Shown piece by piece: positions 23,506-47,168 of a DNA stretch of 64,000 bases (position 1 is the stretch's first letter; every line of letters begins with the position of its first letter). The position numbers were made by a program, and so were the translations under genes. The notes under the pieces are model-generated. The model saw nothing but the letters and a program-made list of their open reading frames with translations, was not told the DNA's origin and did not search any database. This DNA is from a virus. The stretch is taken from the IMG/VR virus record IMGVR_UViG_3300043958_000214; one strand, written 5' to 3'.

Positions 23506-25566
23506 TCACTCGACCATCGCCAGGAACTCGGCCGGGGTGACAGTGCGCACCCCGAGGCTCTGGGCTTTCACGTACTTGCCGGTCGTGGACGGTTCAGAGA
23601 CGAGGAGGCTCGTCTTCTTCGAGACCGAGGAGGCCGCGCGCCCACCCAAACTCTCAATGAGTTCCTGGGCCGTCTGGCGCGTGTAGCCGGGGACGTTTCC
23701 CGACACGACGACCGTCATCCCCTCCAACGGGCGCCGGTTCGCCGGAGCGTTCTCGGGTGTGCCGGCCTCGATGCCGGACCCGTCGCGAGCGGGAGATGCC
23801 CCCATATTCACGCCACGCTGGGCGAGGCGGTCCAGGAGACGTTCCTGACGTTCCAGCTCGGCATGGATCAGCTCCGCCTTCTTCTCCCCCACACCCTCAA
23901 CAGCCTTCAGCTCCTCGACAGTCGCGCCCATCAGGCGCCCCTTAGAGGGGAACGCGGCGGCGAGCCGGCGGCTCATGGACCGCCCCGTTCCTCGCAGGCC
24001 GAGCGCCGTGATGACTCGCGCCCACGCAGACGCCTTGGCCTTCTCGATCTCCGCAGCGATCTTCACCGCGGTCTTCTCCCCCACCACGCGCCCAGACTCG
24101 AGCGTGAGATGAGCGAGCGTCTCCCCGGTGAGGTCGAAGACGTCAGCCAGATCCTCAACGATCCCCTGGTCGATGAGAGCGTCCACGATCTCGGCGCCCA
24201 GTCCTTCGATGTCGAGGGCCGCGCGGGAGACCGCGTAACGAACCTGCGCGCCGACGGAGAGTTCCGGGGATGTCGAGCGCCACAAGAGCGTGGACTTATC
24301 CCATTCCCCACCCGCGGGATCGGTGGCCGGCGGCTCCCACCTCACGGCGTCCGCCGGACGCTCTGTCATGTCGACACCGTCGATATAGGGAATGACGTCG
24401 TTCGCCCGGCGGATCGTCACCGTGTCACCGACACGGATGTCCTTCTCCTGCATCCAGGAGACGTTGTGTCCGCTCGCGTACGTGATGGTGGTCCCACCAA
24501 CGAACACAGGCTCGACCTCAACGCGAACAGCCAGTCGCCCAGTGCGTCCGATATCCGTGGTGATACCGACGACCCGGGTCGTCCCCGTCTCCGCGGGGTA
24601 CTTGTAGGCGACCGCCCACCTGGGGTGGTGCGACGTTGAACCCAAGCGCTCGCGATCCGCGTCCTCATCGGCTTTCACGACAATGCCGTCCGTGGGAAAT
24701 CCGAGGGTCGGGCGCGCGTTTCCGAAAGCGCGCACAAGGTCGAGGACGCTGCCCTCCTCGCCGGCACCAACCGGAGCCATCGGAAGGACGGACACAGCCC
24801 GCTTTCGGGCCGAGGCGATGCCGCACTGCTCGATGATGCTCAGGCGTCCCGAATAGGTCGAGCCGTCCGTCCCGAAAACCAACTCGTAGGTGTCCTCATG
24901 AGCCGACCTGGGCAGGATCACGTCGTAGCAGGCGAACGACAAGAGGCCCGCGTACGCGGGGTCCCCCGCCCGCAAGATCCCAGCGGCGGCATTGCGCTGG
25001 TTGATGAACGGCTTCGCCCCTTCACCCTCGCGGGTGTCCTGGGCGGCGGGGAAATCCCTGTCCGCCATGTACACCTCGCCGCGAACCTCGACGGTGAGAT
25101 GGCGTCCCCGGCCCTCCAGACGATCGGGAAGCCCCTGGACCAGGAGCTTGCGGATTCGGGGCGTGATGTCCTCACCGGTGCGCCCGTCCCCGCGGGTGGC
25201 GATCAGCGCTAGCTTTCCGAAGCGGTACTCGGCGCGGATGGCGAGACCGTCGAGTTTCGGCTCGACCACGACGGAGCCCGGCGTATCTGCGACGAATACG
25301 CGGACCGCATCGAGCGTGGGGACCTTCCCCATGGAAAGCATGGGCGGGCAGTGGGTGACATCCCCGCCCTTGGACGTGCCTGCGGACACGGCGTTGAAGA
25401 GGTCAGCGTACTGGCCGGCTAGACCGGGGTCCTCCGCAACGGCGATACGCAGCTGCTCGATACCGTCGTCGTAGTCGGCGTCGGACATCAACACCGTGTC
25501 GGTGTCGTAGTAGGCCGCCGCTGCGGCACGAAGACGGCTAGCCAGCTTTGCGATTTCAACGTTCAT
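23506..25566 (-). CDS. ligA: NAD-dependent DNA ligase
   Basis: YYD..MSDADYD, EPKLDG, EVRGE, DGIVVK, HhH repeats, C-terminal BRCT. Confidence 0.95.
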   Translation of the reverse strand: MNVEIAKLASRLRAAAAAYYDTDTVLMSDADYDDGIEQLRIAVAEDPGLAGQYADLFNAVSAGTSKGGDVTHCPPMLSMGKVPTLDAVRVFVADTPGSVVVEPKLDGLAIRAEYRFGKLALIATRGDGRTGEDITPRIRKLLVQGLPDRLEGRGRHLTVEVRGEVYMADRDFPAAQDTREGEGAKPFINQRNAAAGILRAGDPAYAGLLSFACYDVILPRSAHEDTYELVFGTDGSTYSGRLSIIEQCGIASARKRAVSVLPMAPVGAGEEGSVLDLVRAFGNARPTLGFPTDGIVVKADEDADRERLGSTSHHPRWAVAYKYPAETGTTRVVGITTDIGRTGRLAVRVEVEPVFVGGTTITYASGHNVSWMQEKDIRVGDTVTIRRANDVIPYIDGVDMTERPADAVRWEPPATDPAGGEWDKSTLLWRSTSPELSVGAQVRYAVSRAALDIEGLGAEIVDALIDQGIVEDLADVFDLTGETLAHLTLESGRVVGEKTAVKIAAEIEKAKASAWARVITALGLRGTGRSMSRRLAAAFPSKGRLMGATVEELKAVEGVGEKKAELIHAELERQERLLDRLAQRGVNMGASPARDGSGIEAGTPENAPANRRPLEGMTVVVSGNVPGYTRQTAQELIESLGGRAASSVSKKTSLLVSEPSTTGKYVKAQSLGVRTVTPAEFLAMVE

Positions 25567-25597
25567 GGACTCAGGCTCCTCATTTGCTCTCGTTCTA

Positions 25598-25608
25598 GTT
25601 GTGAGGCA
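25598..25608 (-). promoter_or_regulatory. Class-A motif core (ligA)
   Basis: GCGTC-N11-TGCCTCACAAC. Confidence 0.75.
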
Positions 25609-25628
25609 ACGGGAGCCGTGACGCACCC

Positions 25629-26099
25629 CTATCGTGAATCGACAACCGCACGTCTGATCGTGGCGATCTGCCGGTCGGTGAGGCCATAGTGGTCACGGGG
25701 GGTGACCAGAATGGCACGTTCGCCGAGACGGCGTCTAATAGAAGCCCCAACCGTGCGATCGTCATCAACGACGACCACCGTGCCGAATGCGTCGTTCGCC
25801 GCAGCCATGATGGCGTCCGTCTTCGAGGCCGCGTGGCCTATCAGCAGGTGAGGGAAGTCGGGGATCGCACCGCGAGTGTCGGTGGCGAAAGCCTGCGTGA
25901 TGTGGCCCCAGGACGAGGCCCACACAGGTGTCGCCGGAGATGCGGCTAACCATTGGAGAAAGTCGAGGACCTCGCGACGGATGTGAAGGTCAAACCCACC
26001 CAGCCGGAATGGGGTCCACTCTGCTCCGGCAGGCTCGCAGGGCTCGTAGGGACTGATGACACCATCGAAGTCGAGGGTGACGAGGACGCTCATCTGCAC
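25629..26099 (-). CDS. HAD-family phosphatase (HAD_SAK-like)
   Basis: LDFDGV, WASSW, VVDDD. Confidence 0.75.
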   Translation of the reverse strand: MQMSVLVTLDFDGVISPYEPCEPAGAEWTPFRLGGFDLHIRREVLDFLQWLAASPATPVWASSWGHITQAFATDTRGAIPDFPHLLIGHAASKTDAIMAAANDAFGTVVVVDDDRTVGASIRRRLGERAILVTPRDHYGLTDRQIATIRRAVVDSR

Positions 26100-26788
26100 C
26101 CTTCACTTGCCAGCTCGACACGCTCGAAGCAACCGCCGTCATCTCGTCGCATTGGTGCTGACCGAACGCGTTGTTCTGTGCTCCGCGGCTGACGCACGTG
26201 TGAGCCGTACCGCGTGGTGCGCGGGGACCACCACCAGCAGGTCGCCGTCACGTCCTCTGGGCGGATCTCCCACAGGCAAGCCTGGACGTCGGGGCAGTCC
26301 GGCGCGATGGTGAACGCATGCTGCCACGATGCCTCGATCTCTGTCTGCGTCCACACCCTGTCCCAGACCCCCTCGTCTTCCCATTGGTCGCGAGGCACGC
26401 AGTACGTGCCGTTCAGCACGCTGTGCCACAGGCCAAAGTCGGAGAGAAGGACGCGGGCAGGGTCCACATCCAGTACCAGCCAGAAAAGACCGCGCGCCTC
26501 GCTGTTGGGCCAGGACGTGCGTCCACCGAGATGAAAATCCAGGGGGACCATGTTCCAAGAAAACCGGGGTGTCGGACTGTCGCGACCAGACATGCGGGCC
26601 CACGCCCAAACGGGCCAGAGAGCACCGTTAGGCCCGGGCCCGAGGACGGCGGCCATCCGCTGGGCGATCCAGTCGTACGCGCCAGCAAAGTCTCCTCCCC
26701 ACTCGGACCTGGCCGGGTCGCACCGATACGCCTTGCCTCCACGCAGAGAATTGACGACCTCACGGGGTTGCATGGTCCACAGACGCAA
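26090..26788 (-). CDS. DUF3841-like protein
   Basis: LWTMQP, AYDWI, PVWAW, VLLSDFGLWHSVLNG, QACLWEI. Confidence 0.7.
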   Translation of the reverse strand: MRLWTMQPREVVNSLRGGKAYRCDPARSEWGGDFAGAYDWIAQRMAAVLGPGPNGALWPVWAWARMSGRDSPTPRFSWNMVPLDFHLGGRTSWPNSEARGLFWLVLDVDPARVLLSDFGLWHSVLNGTYCVPRDQWEDEGVWDRVWTQTEIEASWQHAFTIAPDCPDVQACLWEIRPEDVTATCWWWSPRTTRYGSHVRQPRSTEQRVRSAPMRRDDGGCFERVELASEGCR

Positions 26789-26933
26789 CTTGACATCCTC
26801 GATTCATCTCCCAGTGAGCCGGAAGAACGTGCAGCGTACGTTCAACGTTGCCTCTCCGGCAAAACGGGAAGGAGACTCGGTGATCACTCTGTCGCCCACG
26901 ACGCTCTCCTCGGCGGCCTTCTCGTTCACAGCA

Positions 26934-26944
26934 GTTGTGAGACA
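26934..26944 (-). promoter_or_regulatory. Class-A motif core
   Basis: GTACG-N11-TGTCTCACAAC. Confidence 0.75.
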
Positions 26945-27018
26945 AGACGACGCCTCGTACCCCCTCCGAAGGGCAGGATCGTGGGTGGACGAACCCGCAG
27001 AGGACAGACAGGGTGAAG

Positions 27019-27090
27019 CGCCCCCGGCAGGATTCGAACCCGCGGCACGTGGGGTAGAGACCCACTGCTCTTCCGCTGAGCTACGGAGGC
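27019..27090 (-). tRNA. tRNA-Arg(TCT)
   Basis: Cloverleaf; anticodon arm GTGGG TCTCTAC CCCAC (C33). Confidence 0.8.
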
Positions 27091-27091
27091 A

Positions 27092-27182
27092 TGGCGTCCT
27101 CGGCGGGAGGGGCCACCTCATCCGCCTTTGGCGTCCTCGGCGGGAGGGGCCACCTCATCCGCCTTTGGCGTCCTCGGCGGGA
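27092..27182 (-). repeat. 37-nt tandem repeats containing the tRNA-Arg(CCT) 3' end
   Basis: 17-nt TGGCGTCCTCGGCGGGA (plus) at 27092, 27129, 27166 with identical linkers. Confidence 0.9.
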
Positions 27183-27241
27183 TTCGAACCCGCAACCTAC
27201 GGTGTAGGGGACCGACGCGCTATCCGTTGCGCCACGAGGAC
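27166..27241 (-). tRNA. tRNA-Arg(CCT)
   Basis: Loop CCCCTAC (C33); CCA encoded. Confidence 0.8.
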
Positions 27242-27245
27242 ATCG

Positions 27246-27317
27246 AGCCACCAGGTGGATTCGAACCACCGTTCCCCGATTACAGGTCGGGAGTTCTCTC
27301 CGCTGAACTATGGAGGC
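27246..27317 (-). tRNA. tRNA-Thr(TGT)
   Basis: CCCGA CCTGTAA TCGGG (C33). Confidence 0.8.
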
Positions 27318-27345
27318 GACGGCCGTGCCTCCCGGCGCAGCCTAG

Positions 27346-27418
27346 AGCCCGAGGTGGGGGTCGAACCCACCGCCTCCCGATTACGAAACGGGCGCTCAAC
27401 CAGGTGAGCTTCTCGGGC
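27346..27418 (-). tRNA. tRNA-Thr(CGT)
   Basis: Loop TTCGTAA. Confidence 0.85.
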
Positions 27419-27421
27419 ATG

Positions 27422-27480
27422 GAGGTGCTGGCCGGAAGCGTTCCACTCACCGACCACTCCTCTTCGAGGTGCTGGCCGGA
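27422..27480 (-). repeat. Duplicated tRNA-Cys 3' end (15 nt)
   Basis: GAGGTGCTGGCCGGA (plus) at 27422 and 27466. Confidence 0.8.
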
Positions 27481-27537
27481 GTCGAACCGGCCTGAGCGGC
27501 TTTGCAGGCCGCGACCTTGCCGCTCGGCCACAGCACC
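27467..27537 (-). tRNA. tRNA-Cys(GCA)
   Basis: GCGGC CTGCAAA GCCGC; U73. Confidence 0.9.
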
Positions 27538-27538
27538 A

Positions 27539-27616
27539 TGGGGAGACTGACCGGATTTGAACCGGCGACGACCCGGGCCACAACCGGGCGTTCTACCAGA
27601 CTGAACTACAGCCTCC
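27539..27616 (-). tRNA. tRNA-His(GTG)
   Basis: G-1:C73, loop TTGTGGC, CCA encoded. Confidence 0.92.
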
Positions 27617-27618
27617 AG

Positions 27619-27690
27619 TGCTTCCGGGTGGAATCGGACCACCGCGCTCCGGGCTTCAACCGGATGCTCTACCAACTGAGCTACAGAAGC
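27619..27690 (-). tRNA. tRNA-Phe(GAA)
   Basis: TCCGG TTGAAGC CCGGA. Confidence 0.88.
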
Positions 27691-27721
27691 AATGCGGGAC
27701 GACGCCCCGCAGGCGCGACCG

Positions 27722-28054
27722 TCACGGGCGGTCGAAAGCGTAGGGCCGACCCGGCGCCGGGTTCAGCTTGTCCCACCCCTCATGGTCCGGGTGGGCGGCC
27801 CAGAACTCGCTCGTGTGCGCGTGAGAGCGGGCGGGATCCAACAGGCGCTCCATCCACGGGTATTGTCGGCACATCTCGTGGGCGCAGTCGTGACACACGA
27901 ACACCGTGGGAATGCCCTGATCGTTGTCGTCATGGAACATGCCGTAGCCGCCGCCGAACGTGATCGGCAGGGCGTTCTCAAGCTGAGTCGTGTCGGGGTC
28001 GTCGTCCTTCCACACCGGCTTGAGTTCCGTCCCGCAGTTGATACAGGTCGCCAT
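27722..28054 (-). CDS. Small putative zinc-binding protein inside the tRNA array
   Basis: CINC and CHDC pairs; RBS AAAGGGG. Confidence 0.7.
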   Translation of the reverse strand: MATCINCGTELKPVWKDDDPDTTQLENALPITFGGGYGMFHDDNDQGIPTVFVCHDCAHEMCRQYPWMERLLDPARSHAHTSEFWAAHPDHEGWDKLNPAPGRPYAFDRP

Positions 28055-28069
28055 CGTGACCCCCTTTCG

Positions 28070-28140
28070 CTCCGCCTCTAGGATTCGAACCTAGGTTCGG
28101 GGAACCAAAATCCCCTGTGCTGCCCTTACACCAAGGCGGA
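28070..28140 (-). tRNA. tRNA-Gln(TTG)
   Basis: GGGGA TTTTGGT TCCCC. Confidence 0.9.
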
Positions 28141-28212
28141 ATTGACTCGGCGTCTTCACGCCGTCGTCGGGATTTCTCCAAAACTTCGGCTTCGATGCCG
28201 CTGGCATCTCAG

Positions 28213-28285
28213 TCGGGATGGCGGGTCTCGAACCCACGACCTTCCGCTCCCAAAGCGGACGCGCTACCTACTGCGCCACATCCCG
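28213..28285 (-). tRNA. tRNA-Pro(TGG)
   Basis: TCCGC TTTGGGA GCGGA. Confidence 0.9.
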
Positions 28286-28289
28286 AAAG

Positions 28290-28362
28290 TGCGCGCGGCG
28301 GGGCTCGAACCCGCAGCCTCCGGCTCCGGAGGCCGGCGCTCTTTCCGTTGAGCTACGCGCGC
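28290..28362 (-). tRNA. tRNA-Arg(CCG)
   Basis: CCGGC CTCCGGA GCCGG. Confidence 0.9.
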
Positions 28363-28363
28363 A

Positions 28364-28441
28364 TGGTTGCGGCGGTTGGACTCGAACCAACGACCCCTCC
28401 GTTATGAGCAGAGCGCTGCTAACCGACTGAGCTACGCCGCA
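28364..28441 (-). tRNA. tRNA with CAT anticodon (elongator Met or Ile2)
   Basis: CTCTG CTCATAA CGGAG; CCA encoded; lacks initiator GGG/CCC. Confidence 0.85.
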
Positions 28442-28464
28442 ATCAAGGCTCCGCGAGGAGCCAG

Positions 28465-28538
28465 TGGTGACGCCTGGGATCGAACCAGGGATCTCCGCCT
28501 TATCAGAGCGGTGCCTTCACCAGCTTGGCCACGTCACC
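28465..28538 (-). tRNA. tRNA-Ile(GAT)
   Basis: CCGCT CTGATAA GGCGG. Confidence 0.9.
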
Positions 28539-28539
28539 G

Positions 28540-28612
28540 TCGGGATGGCGGGGCTCGAACCCACGACCTCGCGGCCCCCAGCCGCGCGCGCTTCCTACTG
28601 CGCCACATCCCG
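28540..28612 (-). tRNA. tRNA-Pro(GGG)
   Basis: CGCGG CTGGGGG CCGCG. Confidence 0.88.
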
Positions 28613-28712
28613 GTTGCACGGCGCTGATCGGGCGCTGACGGCCTGTGCCAAGCCGGAGGTTTCGCAAGACGCCGTACGCGCGTTCGCGGACAGTTGCGGG
28701 CCGACGACCCAG

Positions 28713-28783
28713 AGCGAGTGGCGGGAATCGAACCCGCATCGGGTGCTTGGAAGGCACTCGTCCTGCCATTGGACGACACTCGC
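28713..28783 (-). tRNA. tRNA-Gly(TCC)
   Basis: Loop CTTCCAA; U73. Confidence 0.88.
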
Positions 28784-28892
28784 ATCGGTGCGTTTCGCCT
28801 TGCGGCGCGGAGCACCAGGCCGGCCCACGTGTTTCGCTGGACCCCGAGGGCGGGGCTGGGATTCTTCCGCCGATCGCACGTACGCCTGCGCT

Positions 28893-29190
28893 CTCGGTTC
28901 GGTTCCAGCTACCGGGCTCCTTGATACCGGAGGACGCCACCATCGCTGTTTCGGCTTGACCCGTCATGGTCGCCCTGTCCTGCGGGTTCCAGCAGATTCG
29001 CTCCGCGAGAGCGTCCGCGTAGCGGGGTAAGCATCGGGACCTCGCGGGTCCCGCCCCGCGGCGTTGTTGTCCCTCAACGCCACTCCCATGACCCCGCGTC
29101 CGCGGGGTGAATGCCTCACCAGTGGTCGCGCAGGTTTCTGCGACGTCACCAGAAAACGGGACCCGGACGTCCATGGCCACCGAAGTCGAG
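28893..29190 (-). ncRNA. Candidate structured RNA with RNase P-like pairing topology
   Basis: Terminal pairing CTCG/CGAG, TTCGG/CCGAA, CCA/TGG; GGACGT/GCGTCC and CCGGG/CCCGG pseudoknot; no convincing ORF. Confidence 0.4.
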
Positions 29191-29205
29191 GACTGTTACT
29201 TCCAG

Positions 29206-29278
29206 TCGGAATAGCAGGGCTCGAACCTGCGACCTCGAGGACCCGAACCCCGCGCGCTACCAACTGCGCCATATTCCG
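29206..29278 (-). tRNA. tRNA-Pro(CGG)
   Basis: Loop TTCGGGT. Confidence 0.88.
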
Positions 29279-29282
29279 ATAG

Positions 29283-29354
29283 CTGCTCTGCCAGGATTCG
29301 AACCTAGCGCTCCCGATCCAGAGTCGGGCGGGTTACCGAATACCCCACAGAGCA
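29283..29354 (-). tRNA. tRNA-Gln(CTG)
   Basis: CCCGA CTCTGGA TCGGG. Confidence 0.88.
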
Positions 29355-29421
29355 ATGCGACCGTTGGTCCCAAAAGCTGGGAACGGACACATGAACAACG
29401 CACCGCGCGGAGTGCGCTTCG

Positions 29422-29504
29422 CGGAAAGCAGAGAACTCGAATCCCAGCGCTTGAGCGCCCAACCGACTTCCAATCGGTGCCCGAACCTCACGGGTTTACT
29501 TTCC
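29422..29504 (-). tRNA. tRNA-Ser(GGA)
   Basis: ACCGA TTGGAAG TCGGT; long variable arm. Confidence 0.85.
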
Positions 29505-29505
29505 A

Positions 29506-29583
29506 TGGCGACCTATGTCGGATTCGAACCGACGATCTCCGCCGTGACAGGGCGGCGTCCACTCCAAACTGGACCAATAGGCC
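29506..29583 (-). tRNA. tRNA-Asp(GTC)
   Basis: CCGCC CTGTCAC GGCGG; CCA encoded. Confidence 0.92.
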
Positions 29584-29611
29584 ATTACGCACCGGATGCT
29601 TCCGGTGCCGG

Positions 29612-29684
29612 CTCTCCGAGCAGGACTCGAACCTACGACACGGCGGTTAACGGCCGCCTGCTCTACCAGCTGAGCTACCGGAGA
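29612..29684 (-). tRNA. tRNA-Asn(GTT)
   Basis: GGCGG CCGTTAA CCGCC (C33). Confidence 0.85.
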
Positions 29685-29791
29685 ATGCGTTCTGGGGCCA
29701 GCGGCCTTTGCGACGGCGAACCGCCCCGACACGATGCCGATGGGGCGGTCTGTGACCGAGAGGCCTTACCGGCGTCACGTCCAGAACGTCG

Positions 29792-29864
29792 TACTCCCAG
29801 GGGGACTCGAACCCCCGCCCCCGGAGTGAAGATCCGGGATCCTGGACCGCTAGACGATGGGAGC
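29792..29864 (-). tRNA. tRNA-Glu(TTC)
   Basis: CCGGA TCTTCAC TCCGG (C33). Confidence 0.85.
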
Positions 29865-29883
29865 ATGGGCGCTCTCGCGCCAG

Positions 29884-29956
29884 AGCCCAGTGCGGGGTTC
29901 GAACCCGCGACCTCGCCCTTACCAAGGGCGTGCGCTACCGACTGCGCCAACTAGGC
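29884..29956 (-). tRNA. tRNA-Thr(GGT)
   Basis: CGCCC TTGGTAA GGGCG. Confidence 0.9.
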
Positions 29957-29960
29957 ATCG

Positions 29961-29997
29961 AGCGGATGGTCGGGTTCGAACCGACGATCTTCTCCTT
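29961..29997 (-). pseudogene. 3' half of a tRNA-Gly (probably GCC), broken at the anticodon loop
   Basis: AA GGAGA AGATC GTCGG TTCGAAC CCGAC CATCCGC T remains; IS right end abuts position 37. Confidence 0.75.
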
Positions 29998-30310
29998 TTG
30001 ACATCCTCTCGGCCCTGAGGGACCGAGATTCCTGTTGGCCGTGCGGTCGCCTTCTCAGACTGCGTGCAGGTCAGTGCAGGGGGTTGACGCTTCGCAGGGG
30101 TTGCCGGCCGGCACCTGGGTGCTGGCGGGTCTTACTGCTCCTCCACGTCCAAGGCCGTTGTCCCGGCCCGTCTCACGGTGGGTTTCTTCCAGTCCCAGGG
30201 TGAGGATGTTGGTGGCGGCGTTGATGTCCGCGTTGTCCTCATGCCCGCAGGCCACGCACCGGAAGACCACTTGGCTCTCGCGGCTCCCTTTGCGACGCGG
30301 CCACGCCCGG
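29998..30310 (-). mobile_element. tnpB: IS200/IS605-family remnant: tnpB 3' end plus right end
   Basis: FRCVACGHEDNADINAATNI zinc finger/RuvC-III; right end hairpin CTCGGTCCCTCAGGGCCGAG then GATGTCAA; left boundary approximate. Confidence 0.85.
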
Positions 30311-30341
30311 GCCGCAATCCGGGGCGTGACACCCGGACCAG

Positions 30342-30414
30342 AGCGAGCAGCGGGGATCGAACCCGCGACCTCTTCCGTGGGAGGGAAGCGCGCTACCAGC
30401 TGCGCCATGCTCGC
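30342..30414 (-). tRNA. tRNA-Gly(CCC)
   Basis: CTTCC CTCCCAC GGAAG. Confidence 0.9.
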
Positions 30415-30455
30415 ATGAGCGCCGATCCCAGTACTCGGACCTGCTTGTCGCCCAG

Positions 30456-30540
30456 TACCCGCTCCGGGGCTCGAACCCGGACGTCCTTGCGGACACCGAG
30501 GTTTGAGCTCGGCGCGTCTACCTGATTTCGCCACGCGGGC
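30456..30540 (-). tRNA. tRNA-Leu(CAA)
   Basis: CCGAG CTCAAAC CTCGG; long variable arm. Confidence 0.9.
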
Positions 30541-30699
30541 ATGTGGTGGAGCGCGCGGCGACTCGACCTCCGCGCCCCGGCGCGACTCTTGTCGCCCGGA
30601 TTTCTGGCCGGCCCTGGTGAATGCGCCCGGCACTGGTGAGCCATCAGCAGCTCGGTATCGGCACCACCCGATCCGCGGGCTGCGTCACTCGCCCCAAAG

Positions 30700-30772
30700 T
30701 GGACCGTACCGGGATCGAACCGGTGACCTCCTCGTTGCGAACGAGGCGCGCTACCTACTGCGCTAACAGCCC
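30700..30772 (-). tRNA. tRNA-Ala(CGC)
   Basis: G3:U70; loop TTCGCAA. Confidence 0.9.
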
Positions 30773-30861
30773 AATCGGGCACCCGTGCGCTGCCGTAGCC
30801 ACTCACGCGCGGGCAACCAGTCCGACTCGGGATCTCTCCCTCCCTCGCTGGTCTTGCCCGG

Positions 30862-30934
30862 TGGACCGTGCGGGATTCGGACCCGCGACCTCCGCCATGC
30901 CATGGCGGCGCGCTACCAACTGCGCCAACAGCCC
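30862..30934 (-). tRNA. tRNA-Ala(GGC)
   Basis: G3:U70; loop ATGGCAT. Confidence 0.88.
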
Positions 30935-31078
30935 ATTGAGACACCGTCGCCGAACCTCTGGCGGCACTGCGGCACAGGCCAAGGTTTGGCTATCGTCCTT
31001 GACCCGCCTACGGTGTCTTTCGGCCCCGCGACGGGCCGGGACGCTTCCGCGCCCCCGGACGGTCCGCTGCCCGTGCAG

Positions 31079-31151
31079 TTGGCGATCCCGGGCTCGAACC
31101 GGGGACCCTCTCCTCGTCGTGGAGATGCGCTACCGACTGCGCCAATCGCCA
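31079..31151 (-). tRNA. tRNA-Val(GAC)
   Basis: TCTCC ACGACGA GGAGA (C33, G37). Confidence 0.78.
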
Positions 31152-31333
31152 GTGCGGCCGAGGGCCTGCAGAACCCTCGACTTGATGTCTCGTCCGACGT
31201 CGCGGGCATCCTCGCGTCCCGGTATGTGTGCCGGGCTCGCCCGGCTACCATGTCGGCCGGGGCTCTCGTCGTGGTCGCGGAGGCGAAGTGCACGGCACTT
31301 CTCACCCCGCCGACACCCCTTCGGGTGCCGTCG

Positions 31334-31418
31334 CGGAAGGTGCGGGAGTCGAACTCGCACGGGGTCTCCCCCACACCGCTTTCAAGGCGGCTGCCGGCGC
31401 CAATCGGCTGGACCTTCC
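31334..31418 (-). tRNA. tRNA-Ser(TGA)
   Basis: Loop CTTGAAA; long variable arm. Confidence 0.88.
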
Positions 31419-31421
31419 AAA

Positions 31422-31516
31422 GTGCCGCTGGAGGGAATGGGATGCCCTCCATCTTCACTGCGTGCCGCTGGAGGGAATGGGATGCCCTCCATCTTCACTG
31501 CGTGCCGCTGGAGGGA
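31422..31516 (-). repeat. 40-nt tandem repeats containing the tRNA-Arg(ACG) 3' end
   Basis: GTGCCGCTGGAGGGA (plus) at 31422, 31462, 31502 with identical linkers. Confidence 0.9.
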
Positions 31517-31576
31517 GTCGAACCCCCGACCTCGACGTTCGTAGCGTCGCACTCTATCCTGCTGAGCTACAGCGGC
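31503..31576 (-). tRNA. tRNA-Arg(ACG)
   Basis: CGACG CTACGAA CGTCG. Confidence 0.9.
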
Positions 31577-31619
31577 ATTGCGTCCGGGGACGAGCGAGGA
31601 TCCCCGGACAGTAGTCTCG

Positions 31620-32500
31620 GCACGCCTTCCCGGAGTCGACCCGGGAGCGTCTCGCCTTCGCCAAAGGGCGGTCTCGCTGGCGCGCTACCCGTCCTGAATT
31701 CTTGGGCCGAGGACTACTTCGGCTTGCAGCGCCACTCGGCCTCCCGGCCGGCCTCGAATCGGCTGATGCCCTGCACGACATGAATGCCGCGCGCTTCGGG
31801 AAGTTGATGCGAGTGAGAGTATCCCGCATGATCTCGGTGTTCTTTCGCCGCCGTATGGATTAGCGACTTCTCCACGGTGTTCCCACCGTACCCACCACAC
31901 ACGGTCGGTTGCGCCGACCAGTCGTCGAGTCATCGACTACTCCACCGGTTTCGATTCGTCTTGGGATTGCAGGTCCCAGGATTGCTCTACCGCCGCATGA
32001 ACCACGAGGCTCCTTGCGAGAACCACGTAGCCTCCGTTGCCCGAAAGCCGAAGGATTAGTGCGCTATTGTCGATGACTGAGGAAGTCTTTCGCTATGAAA
32101 AAACCATTTCATGTGGTTTGAGGTACCGGGACGCGCTTCCTCTGAGGTTCCGGCTCCTTTTGAAAGTCAGAATGCCTCACGCCCCCATATGCGTTCGTTG
32201 TCGGCTACTAGCAATCTGTCTGTCGTCCACGATCCCGTCGGACCGTTTCCGGCATTCATGGGCCCCGCCCTCGGCTGACGACCTCGGACTCCTGACCCTC
32301 ACGAACGACGCACCGCGCTCACCTGACACTCCCGCGACACGCCACGCTAGCGTGTGGGCCCTCAGCAGTTTTGCCCTTGGGCCACGGGAGCGGCTCGCGC
32401 GGCGAGGGACCCCCACTTACGGATCCCTGCTCGCCCGGCGTGCGTGGATGTACCACCGAAGTGGCGGGCAGGTGTACCGGACCGTGCCCTTTCACCGGCT
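31620..32500 (-). ncRNA. Probable GOLLD-like large ncRNA (boundaries approximate)
   Basis: About 900 nt without a credible ORF inside a tRNA array; lower-GC core; GGTTCTCGCAAGGA..GTGGTT..GGTAGAG segment recalled as GOLLD-like. Confidence 0.6.
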
Positions 32501-32531
32501 CACGCCGGCTTATGCCCCCACGCGGGCATCG

Positions 32532-32603
32532 CACTCCCAGGGGGATTCGAACCCTCGTCGCCCGGCTGAGAACCGGGCGTCTTGACCACTGGACTATGGG
32601 AGC
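32532..32603 (-). tRNA. tRNA-Glu(CTC)
   Basis: CCCGG TTCTCAG CCGGG. Confidence 0.9.
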
Positions 32604-32608
32604 CTGCG

Positions 32609-32689
32609 TGCCGATCGAGGGACTTGAACCCTCACGCCCGAAGACACCAGCACCTCATGCTGGCGCGTCTGCCATTCCGCCAGATCGGC
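32609..32689 (-). tRNA. tRNA-Leu(GAG)
   Basis: CCAGC ATGAGGT GCTGG. Confidence 0.88.
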
Positions 32690-32720
32690 AATGCGGCGAT
32701 TCGGCGCGCCGCGCGCCTCG

Positions 32721-32802
32721 TACCGACTCCGGGGCTCGAACCCGGATGCCCGAAGGCACCGCCACCTGAAGGCGGCGCGTCTGCCAATTTCGCCAAGTCG
32801 GC
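32721..32802 (-). tRNA. tRNA-Leu(CAG)
   Basis: CCGCC TTCAGGT GGCGG. Confidence 0.9.
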
Positions 32803-32803
32803 A

Positions 32804-32875
32804 TGGTCGACGGTCTGGGAATCGAACCCAGCACGACCTCCGTGTAGGGGAGGCTTGCGTCCCAGCGTCCCGTCG
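32804..32875 (-). tRNA. tRNA-Val(TAC), atypical D-arm
   Basis: CCTCC CCTACAC GGAGG (C33); good T-arm; CCA encoded. Confidence 0.65.
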
Positions 32876-32924
32876 GATGGCGCGGAGGCCGTTGGAGGAG
32901 ATGGAGAGCCCCGACCTCCGCGCC

Positions 32925-32999
32925 TGGCATACCGACCGGGGTTCGAACCCGGATCTGCGGTGTTGGAGACCGCTGTTCTCACCGTTGAACTATCGGCAT
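32925..32999 (-). tRNA. tRNA-Trp(CCA)
   Basis: GCGGT CTCCAAC ACCGC; CCA encoded. Confidence 0.9.
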
Positions 33000-33026
33000 A
33001 GTGGGCACCGGCATCCCGGTGCTTTG

Positions 33027-33099
33027 TGCGCCCAGAGGGGTTCGAACCCTCGACCCGGAGCTTAAAAGGCAACTGCTCTACCAACTGAGCTATAGGCGC
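33027..33099 (-). tRNA. tRNA-Lys(TTT)
   Basis: Loop CTTTTAA; two mismatches in anticodon stem. Confidence 0.78.
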
Positions 33100-33116
33100 A
33101 AGAAACGTGAAGCCAG

Positions 33117-33190
33117 TACCCCGTCTGGGGATCGAACCCAGGACCCGACGCTTAAGAGGCGCCTGCTCTTACCGGCTGAGCTAACGAGGC
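33117..33190 (-). tRNA. tRNA-Lys(CTT)
   Basis: GGCGC CTCTTAA GCGTC. Confidence 0.9.
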
Positions 33191-33243
33191 ATGATGGAGA
33201 AGGAGAGGCGCGGCATTCGCCGCTCGCCCACCTGCTCACTGCG

Positions 33244-33315
33244 TAGCGCAGGCCGGATTCGGACCGGCATCTTCTGGCGTATGAGGCCAGTGTGTTCCCG
33301 TTACACCACCGCGCG
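33244..33315 (-). tRNA. tRNA with CAT anticodon (possibly initiator-like)
   Basis: CTGGC CTCATAC GCCAG; unpaired C1/U72 but no GGG/CCC stem. Confidence 0.78.
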
Positions 33316-33319
33316 TCAC

Positions 33320-33945
33320 GCCGGGCGCCGAGTCGCTGCGAGCGCTTTCGCTGCTCGAGTCTCGGCTGCGGGATAGCCCGCCACGTCCTGCCCCGGCGAC
33401 AGGAGGTTCCGGTATGCGTGTACTCGGCCGGACCCCGGTTTCCGTAGCCCGTCCGAGTACCGGGTGGGCGGCATGGCCCTCGGCGCGGGGCCCCGCGCCT
33501 TCGCTGCCCCGGCAGGCAGGACGACCTCCTCACTCATGTCACGCAAGCCGGACGAGGTCGGTTCCGGTCGCGCGGGCGGACGTTCCGCCGACCTCACCGC
33601 CGGCTTCCTGCCTGGCAATGAGGTGGAGTGTCCCGCGGTCCGTGCACGGCTCGCGGGGGTCCCGGATTCCGTTCGGCTCCGGTGGCCGGATCCCAAGGTT
33701 AGCGTCGCAGGTTGGTTGACGGGGAGGTTTGGCCTGGCCGTTCCCATGCACAGGGGTCCGCGTGGTGTCGTCACCGGACGTGTCCGCGCTTCCCCCTTCC
33801 TAGCCCCGATGACAGCCGGGGAGAGGGCGTTGAATGCACCCAGGGTATGACGGTCGCTGGGTGCCCCTCACCGCGCTCCGGGGCGGGATCAACCCGCCCT
33901 TGCGTCGCGCTCGGCTTCGCCGCGGGGCGAGAGGCCGAGGTCTCC
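33320..33945 (-). ncRNA. Candidate ~620-nt structured RNA
   Basis: No credible ORF; many stems (GTACTCGG/CCGAGTAC, GAGGTCGG/CCGACCTC, GGCGCGGGG/CCCCGCGCC). Confidence 0.4.
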
Positions 33946-33948
33946 ACG

Positions 33949-34029
33949 TGCCGGCTGAGGGGGTCGAACCCTCATGCCCGAAGGCGCTGGCTCCTAAGGC
34001 CAGTGCGTCTGCCATTTCGCCAAGCCGGC
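33949..34029 (-). tRNA. tRNA-Leu(TAG)
   Basis: CTGGC CTTAGGA GCCAG. Confidence 0.9.
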
Positions 34030-34156
34030 AGTTCCCGGGGATGAGGCGCGGCTGCCGGGCCAGCCTGAGGCGTGCGCCGGGGGCTACCGGGCGTCGTTTC
34101 CCACTCCGATTTGGGCGTCACCACAGGTGTGGGAGCGGCCTGGAGGCGGACGATCG

Positions 34157-34229
34157 TGGACCCACGGGGAATCGAACCCCGAACCCCCTGCTTGCAAAGC
34201 AGGTGCGCTACCGTTTGCGCTATGAGCCC
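34157..34229 (-). tRNA. tRNA-Ala(TGC)
   Basis: G3:U70; CCTGC TTTGCAA GCAGG. Confidence 0.9.
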
Positions 34230-34305
34230 AGCTTCCGGGTCCTCGGCATCGCGGGCGGTCGTCGCCGTGTGCATCCGCGACCCAGCGGCTTGAACGCTGG
34301 CCGGA

Positions 34306-34360
34306 CAGTGGAGCTGCGGGGAATGGAATACCCCTCGCTTCCAGTGGAGCTGCGGGGAAT
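34306..34360 (-). repeat. Duplicated tmRNA 3' end (19 nt)
   Basis: CAGTGGAGCTGCGGGGAAT (plus) at 34306 and 34342. Confidence 0.85.
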
Positions 34361-34691
34361 CGAACCCCGGTCCGAGATGGCAAGTCATTCAAGGATTTCA
34401 CGAGCGTAGGACGGCGAAGACTCCTGGGCGCGCCCGCGCCGTCCACGGCGCGCCCTCGTTTCCGATCATTGTCTCAACGCCGGGCCTGGTCGGTCGTCCC
34501 GTCGTCCAGTCGCACTACATGATGCCTGCCACCTGGGGGTGCGACCGCCCCGGTGCGGCACTCGTCACGCGGCGAGAATGAAGTTGTCGTTGGCAACTAT
34601 GGGTGCAGCGCCAGTTGTTGACGGGGGTGATGCTGCCTGCCCCGGCTCGACTTTCAATCATCGTTTCATCCCGTCGAAACCGATCAGCCCC
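34345..34691 (-). ncRNA. ssrA: tmRNA
   Basis: 5' GGGGCTGATCGGTTTCGAC; 3' T-arm and CAGCTCCA with G3:U70; tag ORF ANDNFILAA* at 34565-34594. Confidence 0.95.
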
Positions 34692-34720
34692 GATAGGGAT
34701 ACACCCTCAAGGTGCACCAG

Positions 34721-34803
34721 CGGAAGAAGGAGGTCTCGATCCCCAGCCCGATGGGCCAAGCCGCCTAGCAAACGGTTCCAGCCACCCGGCTGGTTCTTCT
34801 TCC
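34721..34803 (-). tRNA. tRNA-Ser(GCT)
   Basis: GGAAGAA/TTCTTCC acceptor; loop TTGCTAG; long variable arm. Confidence 0.75.
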
Positions 34804-34974
34804 ATGTGGGCGGGGACCGCTCGGCCCCCGCCCTAGTGTCGGCCGGCATGACACCGGCCGGTACCTCGGGATGGTGCCCGAGGCTGCTGCCCGCCATGTG
34901 GTGGCGGGCATGTTGTCTGTCCTCTGTGTAGTTCATCAAGATCATGTTGAGATCGGCTTGCGCCGAACCCTGCG

Positions 34975-35059
34975 CGGATCGAGAGGGAATCGAACCCCCG
35001 GGCCCTTTCAGACCGCCTGTATTCGAAGCAGGTCCCGGCTACCAACACCGGACCGATCC
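34975..35059 (-). tRNA. tRNA-Ser(CGA)
   Basis: Loop TTCGAAT; long variable arm. Confidence 0.82.
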
Positions 35060-35103
35060 ACTGACATCCGTCACCTATGCGTAGGCGGATGCCCTCGTAT
35101 GTA

Positions 35104-35114
35104 GTTGTGAGGCA
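35104..35114 (-). promoter_or_regulatory. Class-A motif core at head of tRNA array
   Basis: GCATG-N11-TGCCTCACAAC. Confidence 0.8.
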
Positions 35115-35143
35115 GTCGCGCGTGTCATGCACGGTCTTGCCGG

Positions 35144-35225
35144 TGGGAGATGAAGGACTCGAACCTCCGGTGTTTCCCCGTGCCCGATTTACAGTCGGGT
35201 GCCGTCGCCGCTGGGCCAATCTCCC
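35144..35225 (-). tRNA. tRNA-Tyr(GTA)
   Basis: CCCGA CTGTAAA TCGGG; long variable arm. Confidence 0.9.
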
Positions 35226-35327: not shown

Positions 35328-35338
35328 GTTGTGCGGCA
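35328..35338 (-). promoter_or_regulatory. Class-A motif core upstream of tRNA-Tyr
   Basis: GCGCG-N11-TGCCGCACAAC. Confidence 0.75.
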
Positions 35339-41095: not shown

Positions 41096-41649
41096 GCGAA
41101 GACATGGTCACTGTCGTCGCCCCAGGCGTCCCAGCCCGGCCGGCGCTCGCGGGCGAACATCTCCAGCTTTCGGGCGTGCGGGTAGAGGGCGTCGATGCGG
41201 CGTGCAACCTCGTCGGGCTTGCGTGAGTGCTCACGTTTGGGGGCAAGGACGACCTGGCGGACGGATTCCGAGGCGAGCGGGAGCGGACGACCCTTGGCGC
41301 GCGTGGAGGCGGCGAGGACGAACTCGGTGGTCGGCTTCACGATGGTGAGGCGCACGCCTTGGGCCCCGATAGGGGTGATGCCATCCGCCTTCGTCTTCAC
41401 CCAGACGAACGCCACTCCGCGGTAGTGGAGTCCCCACGACCGGATGCACTCCAGGGCGAAGTCGAGGCGCGGGCACGTGGCCCACAAGAACAACACGCCG
41501 GGGTCCGCCAATGCCACGTCGAGGGAGCGGAGGTCCTCATCCTCCATGAGCGCGTACTCCTTGCCGGCCGCGCCCATCTTGGTTGGGCTCCCGTAGTAGG
41601 TCCAGGGAGGGTCGGAGAGGATGACCGGATACGGGGCGCTCCATCTCAT
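41092..41649 (-). CDS. MT-A70-family adenine methyltransferase
   Basis: DPPW, LFLWAT, WVK, EHSRKP, LEMFAR. Confidence 0.9.
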   Translation of the reverse strand: MRWSAPYPVILSDPPWTYYGSPTKMGAAGKEYALMEDEDLRSLDVALADPGVLFLWATCPRLDFALECIRSWGLHYRGVAFVWVKTKADGITPIGAQGVRLTIVKPTTEFVLAASTRAKGRPLPLASESVRQVVLAPKREHSRKPDEVARRIDALYPHARKLEMFARERRPGWDAWGDDSDHVFA

Positions 41650-44600
41650 TCGTGGAGTCCCTTGAGGAAGTCGACGGCTGTGTCGAGCTTGGAGATGCGC
41701 CTTCCCCAGTCCTCCCCCAGGGCCCGCATGTAGAGCTTGCGGGTCTGCTCCGGGTAGGAGAAAACGCTGGCCGGTTTCTTCAACAGGCGCGGGTCGAGGA
41801 GGGCGACCATTCCCTTGTCGTTGCCCGAGCGGATGAGTCTGCCGGCGGCCTGCTCGACCAGTAGCGCCGCGTCGGCCACGTAGACCTGTCGGTCGGCACG
41901 CCACCGGTCGATCTTCTGGGCGCTCATCAGCGACTCCAGGCGGGCGTCATCCACCGGGTTCGATGGGGAGCGCGGGATCCGATCGATGATGACGAGACTG
42001 CAGGTGGTGCCCGGGGCGTCCACTCCCGTCATGAGGGATCGTGTTCCCACGAGGACAGCTGTCTCGTCGCTACGCCACCGTTCGACCAGCTCTCGAAGAG
42101 GGAGCCCGTCCCACTGGTCGAGGACGGTGAACATCCCTCCCGTACGGGTGCGCAGATACTCCGCGTAGGCCTTCCCGTCGCTTGATTTCGCGGCGAGGAC
42201 GAGGGCGCGTCCGCCGTTTGCTTCAACGAGTGCGGCGATCTTCGGGATCACCCAGGCGGCGTGACGCGACGTGTCGAGTTTGGGCTTTCCGGAGCGCGCC
42301 TGGGTCGCGGACAGGGCGGCGATGTCGGCGGGGTCGATCGCTCGCGGCACGTAGACGGCCGAACGCTTCCGCGCGACGTCGAAGGGCGAGGGGAAGCAGA
42401 TGACGCTCGCGTCAAGGCCCATTTCTCTGGCGAAACCCTGGGGAATGGTTGCGGACACGGCGACGACGCTCATCGGGTAGTAGACCTTGTCGCCTTCGGG
42501 CCCGACGTCACAGGAGATGTCGTCCTCGGCTTGGGCGCGGTCCCTGTCCTTGAGATCGTCTTCCACCTCTGGGGCGATCCACAGGTTCCGCTTGAGTGCT
42601 GCCGAGACGTTGACCGTCGAGTATCGCAGCGCCGCTTCATGGTCATTGCCTCGCCCCGCCTCGACCCAGCGGGCGACGCCCGGTGTGTGGGTACGGACTT
42701 GGTTGAGGTCGGAGAGCGCATTGTCGAACCGGGTGAGGACGCGCTTGACGGACATGTCGTTGCTATGGGCCTTCGTGGCCTGGACGATGAGCGCGCGGGC
42801 TTGGGTGAGCCAGGCCTCCATCGCGGATCCGAAATCTGCGGCGGGATCCTCGTCCTCCCCCACCTTATGGATGTCGCCATTGCGGACTTTCGCGTTCAGG
42901 GCCTTGTCGACCATCTGCGCGATCATGTCGCCGGCGTCTGCGATCTTATGGTTCTTCCCGAGTTCGACGGTGTGGGTGAGGGAGCGGGCGAGGGAGCGGA
43001 TGCGGCGTCCCGTCACTTCACCGGCACCCTGGTTTCGGACTTGGCTGGGCATGCCGTGCGCCTCGTCCATGACGATGGCGTCGAAGTGGCCGAGGGTTTT
43101 CGAGCCTGTGACCGCGGGGACGCCGTTGGCCGCTTCAACGGCTAGAAGCGTGTGGTTGGTGACGACGACATCCGCCTCGGCGGCGGCCACCTTGGCTCGC
43201 GCTGCCTTGCACCGGTCGGCGAACGGGCACTTCTTGACCCCGATGCATTCCGCCGGCGTCACGGAGACGGACGCCCAGTCCGCGCCGTTGGAGACCCCGG
43301 TGTAGGAGTGCCGGTCGCCTTTCAGAGCCGGGTCGCTGTATTGGTCGAGGGCCCAGGCGACCAGCATCTCTTGCTGCCCTCCACGCTCACGGAGCCTCCC
43401 CGCCATCTTCTCGTCTGGCTCCTCTTTTCCCTCCTTGATCCTGAGGATCTTGTGGGCGGTCTCGCGGGCGGCGACCAGACAGGCGTGGTTCGACCAGCCC
43501 TTGAGGACCGCGACCTTCGGGGCGGTACCGGGGACGACTTGGCTGACTGCCCGCGTGACGACGGGCGCGTCCTTGTCGACGAGCTGAGACTGGAGAGACA
43601 GTGACTCGGTGGAGACGACCGTGCGTTTGCCGTCCACGGCTGCTGCCAGCGCCGCCGGCACGAGGTACGCCAGCGAGTTATGCGTGGGGACGCAGGACGT
43701 CCCGGCGAGGAACAGGTGGGTGGGGGACTTCACGGTGATGCAACGCACCGGGACCGGTTCGACTTTTTCGACGCGGATGATGTGCAGTCCTTGCGCGCCA
43801 GTGTTCGCAGCGCGATTGAGCTCTGCGGCTTTGTCTGGGCAGCGGAAGACGCGGATGCCACCGTGGTTGAACGCCAGACGTGCGTTCCTCCCCCATCTCG
43901 ACCGGCTGACGTGGATCCCGAAGGTGGCGAGAAGTTGGAGAACGGACTCGGTGAATGCGCGAGAGGGATGGGCGAAGAGGCAGGTTTCGCCTGTCGCCTC
44001 GACTTGGTCGACGGCGCCAGCGACGTCCATGATCCCCTGGAGCAGCGCCAGCCTTTGGACCGTAGAGGCCCGGAGGTAGGAGTGGGGGATCTCGAGAGAG
44101 TCCGGCTGAGCGGCGAGGCGCTGGCCTAGCCGGTAGGGATCCAAGGGCAGTCGGGCGTCGGGAAGGACCATCGGCAAGGTGGGGACGAGGAGGGAGACGT
44201 TCGTTCGCCGCCCGAGGTCTTGGGTGCGGGTGATCACCCTGTTGACCTCAGCCAGGTCCTCCTGGCCGAGTAGCCTGATCGCCTCGTCCAGGACGTCCGC
44301 CGGGGCCACCATGATGGGGTTTGGCAGTCGCCCTCCGATGAGCCGTTCAACGTCCTCCGGCGAGGCGTTGCCGGACAACTCTGACTCGTCGGCTCCGGCG
44401 AGTCGGGCGATGCCGAGGATACTTGTCGCTTCCGCGACAGTCGATCCCGCCAGTCTGGTGAGGCGTTCCAGCGAACCGGCTTCCCGCAAAGTCGATCCTG
44501 CGGCGTTCTCGATGACCTTCACTGGGAGCAGGCGCGCTATCGTCACCCCTGCAGCCTCGGCGAGAACGGCCATGGGGAGGGCGCCCCGGCAGTCCTCATA

Positions 44601-45101: not shown

Positions 45102-45105
45102 GCCT

Positions 45106-45115
45106 TGTGTGTGCC
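45106..45115 (-). promoter_or_regulatory. Class-B motif (dinG)
   Basis: GGCACACACA-AGGC-ATG. Confidence 0.65.
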
Positions 45116-47166: not shown

Positions 47167-47168
47167 CC

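Follow-up and report, generated by a model that had tools for sequence, protein, structure and literature searches.

The window analysed here, a stretch of 64,000 nucleotides of viral DNA (IMG/VR record IMGVR_UViG_3300043958_000214), contains within 8.2 kb of one strand an array of 41 transfer-RNA (tRNA) genes along with one transfer-messenger RNA (tmRNA) and one GOLLD RNA, which set of genes probably constitutes an accessory translation-RNA operon of a conjugative-plasmid-like actinobacterial element of ~190 kb, supplementing the tRNAs of the host. This reading is carried by the gene complement and the quality of the individual genes, by a gene order that two relatives share, by the compensatory conservation of the cloverleaves, and by the conserved boxes at the array head; from these features we infer the transcription, processing, and charging of the encoded RNAs as well as the benefit that the array would confer.

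ARAGORN in its default mode returned 38 tRNA genes plus the tmRNA at positions 27018-35225, all of them on the minus strand, and the same 39 genes were backed by Infernal with the Rfam models: 36 of the 38 tRNAs matched RF00005 at 42-69 bits, and the remaining two, both of them long-arm serine tRNAs, scored as tRNA-Sec-like. Under relaxed thresholds ARAGORN added three genes and no others—Ser(GGA) (29421-29504), Val(TAC) (32804-32875), and Ser(GCT) (34720-34800)—none of which had an Rfam tRNA match at E<=0.1. The resulting count of 41 is nevertheless defensible, because in two syntenic relatives the cloverleaves of these three sub-threshold tRNAs are preserved by base changes that compensate one another, as detailed below. 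All 20 amino acids and 40 different anticodons are represented, CAT alone being duplicated: the CAT gene at 33243-33315, with position 1:72 unpaired and a CGCG start, is initiator-like, and the second one, at 28364-28441, belongs to the elongator or Ile2 type. Missing from the set are Leu(TAA) and Val(CAC), Gly(GCC) is present as a 3' fragment only, and the CCA end is encoded in six genes, namely those for Trp, Val(TAC), Asp, Met (28364-28441), His, and Arg(CCT). The first-pass annotation, which had described 41 tRNAs for 20 amino acids plus a tmRNA on a single strand, one gene per anticodon except for two CAT, the same three absences, and six CCA-encoding genes, and had suggested ARAGORN as a check, was thus borne out in its inventory. 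The density of 4.6-5.0 tRNA genes per kb (38-41 in 8.2 kb) is far beyond chance, and with either count the region lies above both limits of the published definition of an array unit, which definition calls for at least 20 tRNA genes per region at a density of at least 2 per kb (PMC4758250).

The tmRNA, which ARAGORN placed at 34344-34691, scored 118 bits versus 47 against RF00023 in Infernal. Its termini, GGGGCUG...CAGCUCC, provide the G3:U alanine identity pair, and the reading frame of the tag ends in LAA followed by a stop codon. In the relative designated L029 (see below) the gene is 89% identical and encodes the tag ANDNYILAA, which differs from that of the window by a single conservative change of F to Y. 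The last ~18 nt of the tmRNA (TTCCCCGCAGCTCCACTG) recur 14 nt downstream of the gene, at 34308-34333, which repetition looks like an integration-site scar.

The first-pass annotation had overlooked a GOLLD RNA within the array. The match to RF02032 scored 180.4 bits, the gathering score being 150 (E=4e-49), and covered the model in full (1-416 of 416), and GOLLD was found at the equivalent place in both relatives, at 173 bits in L028 and 196 bits in L029. The 345 nt directly 5' of that match, at 32186-32530, probably represent its variable 5' domain, which would bring the GOLLD RNA to ~724 nt, since this stretch holds no open reading frame (ORF) and is conserved on a par with the tRNAs; its fold z-score was -2.0, and just three covarying pairs were counted. 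In GOLLD a less conserved 5' domain precedes the 3' one, for a total of about 700-800 nt. The full match of the 3' domain and the location in a tRNA island are as described for that RNA, to whose variable 5' part the 345-nt stretch may correspond, and whose structure is that of a 14-mer nanocage (bioRxiv 10.1101/2024.12.08.627333); the present copy, however, would reside on a plasmid-like element with conjugation genes and not on a recognisable phage.

Table 1. Features of the tRNA array and of its downstream flank, from the array head onwards (positions refer to the window; identity is the fraction of identical DNA positions with respect to the relatives L028 and L029).
Feature	Position	Strand	Identity to relatives	Remarks
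Box 1 (TGCCGCACAAC)	35328-35338	minus		103 nt upstream of tRNA-Tyr; GCRYG 11 nt upstream
tRNA-Tyr(GTA)	35142-35225	minus		First array gene; ARAGORN, Infernal
Box 2 (TGCCTCACAAC)	35104-35114	minus		Between tRNA-Tyr and tRNA-Ser(CGA)
tRNA-Ser(CGA)	34974-35059	minus		ARAGORN, Infernal
tRNA-Ser(GCT), divergent	34720-34803	minus		Relaxed ARAGORN only
tmRNA	34342-34691	minus	0.89	Tag ANDNFILAA; CCA not encoded; ARAGORN, RF00023
tRNA-Ala(TGC), tRNA-Leu(TAG)	33948-34229	minus		With conserved 126-nt spacer
Met(CAT), Lys(CTT), Lys(TTT), Trp(CCA), Val(TAC), Leu(CAG), Leu(GAG), Glu(CTC)	32531-33315	minus		
Candidate GOLLD 5' stretch	32186-32530	minus	0.85-0.86	Directly 5' of GOLLD match; ORF-free, conserved
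GOLLD RNA, conserved 3' domain	31807-32185	minus	0.85-0.95	RF02032
Arg(ACG), Ser(TGA), Val(GAC), Ala(GGC), Ala(CGC), Leu(CAA), Gly(CCC)	30341-31576	minus		
Thr(GGT), Glu(TTC), Asn(GTT), Asp(GTC), Ser(GGA), Gln(CTG), Pro(CGG)	29205-29956	minus		
Gly(TCC), Pro(GGG), Ile(GAT), Met/Ile2(CAT), Arg(CCG), Pro(TGG), Gln(TTG)	28069-28783	minus		
ORF of 110-amino-acid Cys/His-rich protein	27722-28054	minus		GC at third codon positions 0.86; no Pfam family
Phe(GAA), His(GTG), Cys(GCA), Thr(CGT), Thr(TGT), Arg(CCT), Arg(TCT)	27018-27690	minus		
Downstream genes with own box (26934-26944)	23506-26944	minus		
DUF3841 protein	26090-26788	minus		
HAD_SAK_2-like phosphatase	25629-26099	minus		22.8 bits vs Pfam cut-off of 27.5
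NAD-dependent ligase	23506-25626	minus		
Most tRNAs			0.8-1.0	
Large spacers B, C, and F			0.28-0.50	Hundreds of gap columns

The two relatives, a 112-kb scaffold (L028; ENA ERZ28597915) and a 30.5-kb contig (L029; JGI 3300005086), were reached by a protein-cluster search through homologues of the DUF3841 protein encoded downstream of the array; the first locus searches with that protein in viral and genome collections had given no match, and searches with the array, GOLLD, and spacer F in phage and plasmid DNA collections gave single-tRNA matches or nothing. L028 and L029 share the tRNA order of the window at a DNA identity of 72-98%, and the order of array, DUF3841, and, further on, LigA is likewise kept in both. 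Since the tRNAs, the tmRNA, and GOLLD are conserved while spacers B, C, and F diverge (Table 1), it is the RNA genes, and not the spacers, that are under selection. The array is, moreover, not an assembly artefact, because the sequence of the window recurs unchanged in three or more JGI assemblies as well as in several Logan contigs. Sludge samples with the element are JGI 3300045593, 3300044545, and 3300044548, and it is also present in the study of SRR16378445.

Compensatory changes were found in the three genes that relaxed thresholds had added. With respect to the relatives, Val(TAC) has five and Ser(GGA) four pairs changed on both sides with the cloverleaf kept, and in the comparison of the window with L029, seven of the 29 pairs of Ser(GCT) are altered on both sides yet remain paired; these three are accordingly best described as divergent but selected tRNA-like genes. 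The three versions also differ in content: Leu(GAG) is missing from L029, and in L028 an HNH endonuclease occupies the site at which the window and L029 have the ORF for a 110-amino-acid protein. Just before Gly(GCC), L029 furthermore has an extra tRNA-like gene of 89 nt (6445-6533; Cys(gca) according to ARAGORN) without a counterpart in the window, in which that spot corresponds to the rearranged spacer C.

Among the spacers, F (33316-33947) was considered as a conserved RNA in view of a fold z-score of -3.1, but was rejected because its conservation in the relatives is just 45-50%, the alignments having over 200 gap columns; B and C were rejected as structured RNAs, with z-scores of -1.2 and -0.2 and no conservation in the relatives. 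The 126-nt spacer at 34030-34155, between Ala(TGC) and Leu(TAG), is 94% identical in L029, which value is above that of many tRNAs, and its first ~58 nt are kept in all three elements; this spacer contained no ORF, Rfam match, or covariation. Two perfect tandem repeats adjoin arginine tRNAs: two 40-nt units at 31422-31501, directly 3' of tRNA-Arg(ACG), and two 37-nt units at 27092-27165, directly 3' of tRNA-Arg(CCT). Each unit opens with the last ~15 nt of the adjoining tRNA (GCCA included for Arg(CCT)) and continues into a different hairpin, and short-read contigs end at both repeats. These units may be att-like scars, products of slippage, or minihelix-like processing elements.

The motifs that the first-pass annotation had placed at the head of the array proved to be two promoter-like boxes. 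Of their consensus, TGYCNCACAAC, the window has 17 copies, each of them on the minus strand, where 0.26 would be expected, which is a 65-fold over-representation; a GCRYG motif lies 11 nt upstream, and in the coding genes the start codon follows a few bases downstream. No other copy was found within the array beyond the two at its head, and the next one, at 26934-26944, is that of the DUF3841 gene. The two boxes of the array head occupy the equivalent positions in L029, 1738-1748 and 1983-1993, even though the head spacer is just 57% identical; and in L028, too, the next box comes after the last tRNA. The array is probably transcribed as long precursors under a regulon of the element's own. 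The composite GCRYG-N11-TGCCTCACAAC is seen a few bases before the start codons of many genes on the minus strand between positions 7485 and 61703 of the window, and, because the box sits so close to the start codons, leaderless or near-leaderless messengers and a promoter not resembling those of sigma-70 are implied.

As to the carrier, the longest contig with the sequence of the window measures 192 kb. Encoded in the window are Cas proteins of type I-E, an NAD-dependent ligase, and SNF2 and DinG-like helicases with putative inteins, and at 45282-52865 an AAA_10/VirB4-like ATPase (weak matches) together with a G5/DUF348 lytic transglycosylase. Scans with Pfam, PHROGs, and NCBIfam found no phage structural gene in the 64 kb, for which reason, together with the presence of the VirB4-like and transglycosylase genes, we rejected the interpretation as a jumbo phage and favour a plasmid-like element as the more probable reading. 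The N-terminal or middle parts of the DinG-like helicase (41646-45182) and of the VirB4-like ATPase (49026-52865) match terminase PHROGs that bear inteins, which matches suggest inteins in both of these large ATPases. At 58454-59092, some 23 kb from the array, a protein of 212 amino acids has a partial PTH2 domain (peptidyl-tRNA hydrolase of the archaeal/eukaryotic type) and might represent a further translation-rescue function of the element.

If the array is indeed an accessory operon, transcription would start at the two element-specific boxes of its head and yield long precursors spanning the 41 tRNAs, the tmRNA, and the GOLLD RNA, which precursors the RNase P, RNase Z, and RNase E-type enzymes of the host would cut. 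A CCA-adding enzyme would then complete 35 of the tRNAs, and the host synthetases would charge them. Through one extra copy of almost every anticodon, the expression of the element's genes would become less dependent on the tRNA make-up or state of the host, and the tmRNA would contribute ribosome-rescue capacity. Certain observations weigh against such an operon. In both the window and L028, Val(TAC) has C33 where U33 is near-universal, though L029 has U33. Neither a sigma-70-type promoter nor a clear terminator was found, and the promoter role of the boxes is itself something that we infer. Finally, Gly(GCC) is in the window only a 3' remnant comprising the T-arm and the acceptor (29957-29997, minus strand; the last ~40 nt), its 5' half being replaced by ~300 nt of unrelated sequence (29998-30296). 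This remnant aligned at 97% with the corresponding 3' portion of the intact genes that both relatives possess between Gly(CCC) and Thr(GGT) (L028, 4336-4408; L029, 6537-6609), and a scan of the spacers for an anticodon arm of Gly(GCC) found none.

The one convincing ORF inside the array encodes a protein of 110 amino acids that belongs to no Pfam family. In 16 homologues the residues C4 and C7, the sequence CHDCAH, and H78, H80, and H91 are invariant, which pattern is that of a putative metal-binding protein; the AlphaFold model had a mean pLDDT of 69, and Foldseek gave no match in the PDB with an E value below 0.5. The ESM Atlas returned only viral hypothetical clusters for this protein, with neighbours that are mostly viral. 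Homologues lie within arrays of ~40 tRNAs that also hold GOLLD in L010 and L011, two mutually close contigs of huge phages (189 and 345 kb; GC 42-43%) that are unrelated to the window; within the 35-tRNA array of L013 and the array of L029; next to tRNAs and a tmRNA in L007; and, on a 494-kb contig, between DUF3841 and HAD_SAK_2. The more distant homologues have no array nearby. Arrays holding this family also carry a TROVE/Ro60-like protein (L010, 11249-12832) and an RlaP RNA-repair nucleotidyltransferase (L013, 15873-16556), and such recurring company suggests for the 110-amino-acid protein a link to tRNA handling or repair. Of its own downstream neighbours in the window, neither the DUF3841 nor the HAD protein has a related solved structure detectable by sequence, and a literature search found no mention of DUF3841. 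A match to the Pistol ribozyme was seen in L014, and one to the small signal-recognition-particle RNA, adjoining tRNAs, in L012.

Those neighbours bring into consideration an explanation that overlaps with the supplementing operon and does not exclude it: the array, together with neighbours of the RNA-repair type, may serve as a store of spare parts in counter-defence, sustaining translation when tRNAs are cut or depleted upon entry of the element, the cutters being host defences or toxins of competitors such as PrrC-, VapC-, or colicin-type anticodon nucleases. We hold this to be possible, though the less probable of the two. The phosphatase directly downstream resembles HAD_SAK_2, which occurs in "Swiss Army Knife" RNA-repair proteins, and is accompanied by DUF3841 and a ligase in an arrangement that is syntenic in the relatives; the element has the PTH2-like domain mentioned above; RlaP and the TROVE/Ro60-like protein occur in other arrays with the 110-amino-acid protein or its relatives; and plasmid arrays of Arthrobacter and Curtobacterium carry HAD, NUDIX, and RNA ligase genes. 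One copy per anticodon, moreover, suits an insurance better than it does the tuning of a few rare codons. The HAD match, however, falls short of the Pfam cut-off (Table 1), the ligase is a standard NAD-dependent DNA ligase, and neither an RNA ligase nor a kinase-phosphatase was found among the genes of the window. A bolder version of this thought, to which we would give somewhat less credence, is that the array, GOLLD, the 110-amino-acid metalloprotein, DUF3841, the HAD-phosphatase, and the ligase might form a single mobile "translation insurance" cassette that huge phages (GC 42%) exchange with conjugative megaplasmids (GC 65%), with the GOLLD cage and the metalloprotein acting directly on the array tRNAs, for instance in their storage, maturation, or repair after nuclease attack.

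The first-pass annotation had gone further in a different direction in proposing that the element can replace the tRNA pool of the host. To this end one could cite the representation of 20 of 20 amino acids by 40 anticodons, and above all the relatives, which hold 42 tRNA-like genes including Gly(GCC) and would leave uncovered only UUA and AUA, amounting to 0.03-0.04% of the codons. Over 13,515 codons from 38 ORFs of the window, and under standard wobble rules, the codons without a cognate tRNA in the present array came to 9.9% with the 38 robust tRNAs and to 3.9% with all 41, which latter remainder consisted almost wholly of GGC and GGU (3.8% of codons); GGC is the commonest glycine codon, and this gap exists because Gly(GCC) is truncated in this copy. 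A single gene per anticodon, in addition, is unlikely to match the supply of the host; 35 of the 41 tRNAs require a CCA-adding enzyme; and among ~50 ORFs of the window scanned with Pfam, PHROGs, and NCBIfam, none was found to encode an aminoacyl-tRNA synthetase, RNase P or Z, SmpB, or a CCA enzyme. What stands of the proposal, then, is that the lineage has a near-complete, non-redundant decoding set, on account of which translational independence is reasonable as a design; as a property of this copy, full autonomy is very improbable, and a supplementing or buffering of the host pool fits the evidence better than its replacement. About as improbable is the explanation by a decaying passenger, a phage-derived array captured by a plasmid and drifting with no present function, since the one truncated and three non-canonical genes, the indel-rich large spacers, the HNH endonuclease that stands in L028 at the site of the 110-amino-acid ORF, and the mostly viral distribution of GOLLD and of the 110-amino-acid family (ESM Atlas; bioRxiv 10.1101/2024.12.08.627333) are opposed by the strong purifying selection on the tRNAs, tmRNA, and GOLLD relative to the spacers, by the compensatory changes in even the odd tRNAs, and by the conservation of the promoter boxes.

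The first-pass annotation was right in stating that plasmids and phages of actinobacteria can carry tRNA arrays. In Mycobacterium, arrays of 20-39 tRNA genes in the groups G1-G5 are found in chromosomes, prophages, phages, and plasmids of 195-437 kb, with a tmRNA in some and a structured RNA of ~430 nt in ~81% of them (Morgado & Vicente 2018, PMC5966550); GOLLD is described as widespread in those arrays (Morgado et al. 2020, RNA Biol 17:1001, as cited in bioRxiv 10.1101/2024.12.08.627333), and in M. aubagnense a cluster of 32 tRNAs contains GOLLD, with both the tRNAs and GOLLD being expressed (Behra et al. 2019, PMC6582537). A 375-kb Arthrobacter plasmid has a 34-tRNA array, and on pMP7017, a 190-kb conjugative megaplasmid of Bifidobacterium breve, 17 of the 20 arrayed tRNAs and the tmRNA are highly transcribed (PMC10832533). 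The present array shares with those of Mycobacterium the high-GC actinobacterial setting, the 20 isotypes, the probable plasmid location, the tmRNA, and GOLLD. It differs in the embedded 110-amino-acid protein that would bind metal, in a gene count (38-41) that reaches or passes the upper end of the range reported for them, and in its host, an uncultured sludge actinobacterium; the small coding sequences and HNH endonucleases interspersed in the mycobacterial arrays have a parallel in the HNH gene of L028 but none in the window copy. With pMP7017 there is agreement in the probable type of carrier, an actinobacterial conjugative megaplasmid of the same size, and in the combination of a tRNA array with a tmRNA, but the 20 tRNAs of that plasmid serve 12 amino acids and are accompanied by a manA motif RNA and not by GOLLD, versus 41 genes for 20 amino acids and GOLLD here. 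The L-arrays of cyanobacteria and other phyla (PMC8421152; PMC4758250) resemble the present array in comprising up to 43 genes, in being horizontally mobile, and in having been proposed to help under translational stress; they differ in phylum and gene order, and the abstracts report no tmRNA or GOLLD for them.

The comparison with known array groups that the first-pass annotation had recommended was carried out for the isotype strings of G1-G4, in both orientations, those of G5 being absent from the table compared: local alignments were no better than those of shuffled strings, the longest shared run was of 2-3 letters, and the order of the window matched none of the four groups. Nor was that order found in any fetched array other than L028 and L029, and the DNA similarity to the Mycobacterium arrays did not extend beyond single tRNAs. 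Because arrays of tRNAs with a tmRNA and GOLLD have been described on mycobacterial plasmids and phages, and arrays of tRNAs with a tmRNA on pMP7017, the array of the window is known in kind; what is new is its gene order.

The significance of the array lies, then, in extending such assemblages of tRNAs, tmRNA, and GOLLD from the cultured mycobacteria and bifidobacteria to what appears to be a plasmid lineage of uncultured sludge actinobacteria. Its three syntenic versions, in which one gene has been truncated, one lost, and one HNH endonuclease inserted, amount to a natural experiment, and the three-way comparison points to the parts under selection, these being the tRNAs, the tmRNA, and both halves of GOLLD, and not the spacers. 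In addition, the recurrence of GOLLD with a small putative metalloprotein in unrelated arrays, along with the RNA-repair-type neighbours, may provide leads on the function of that RNA.

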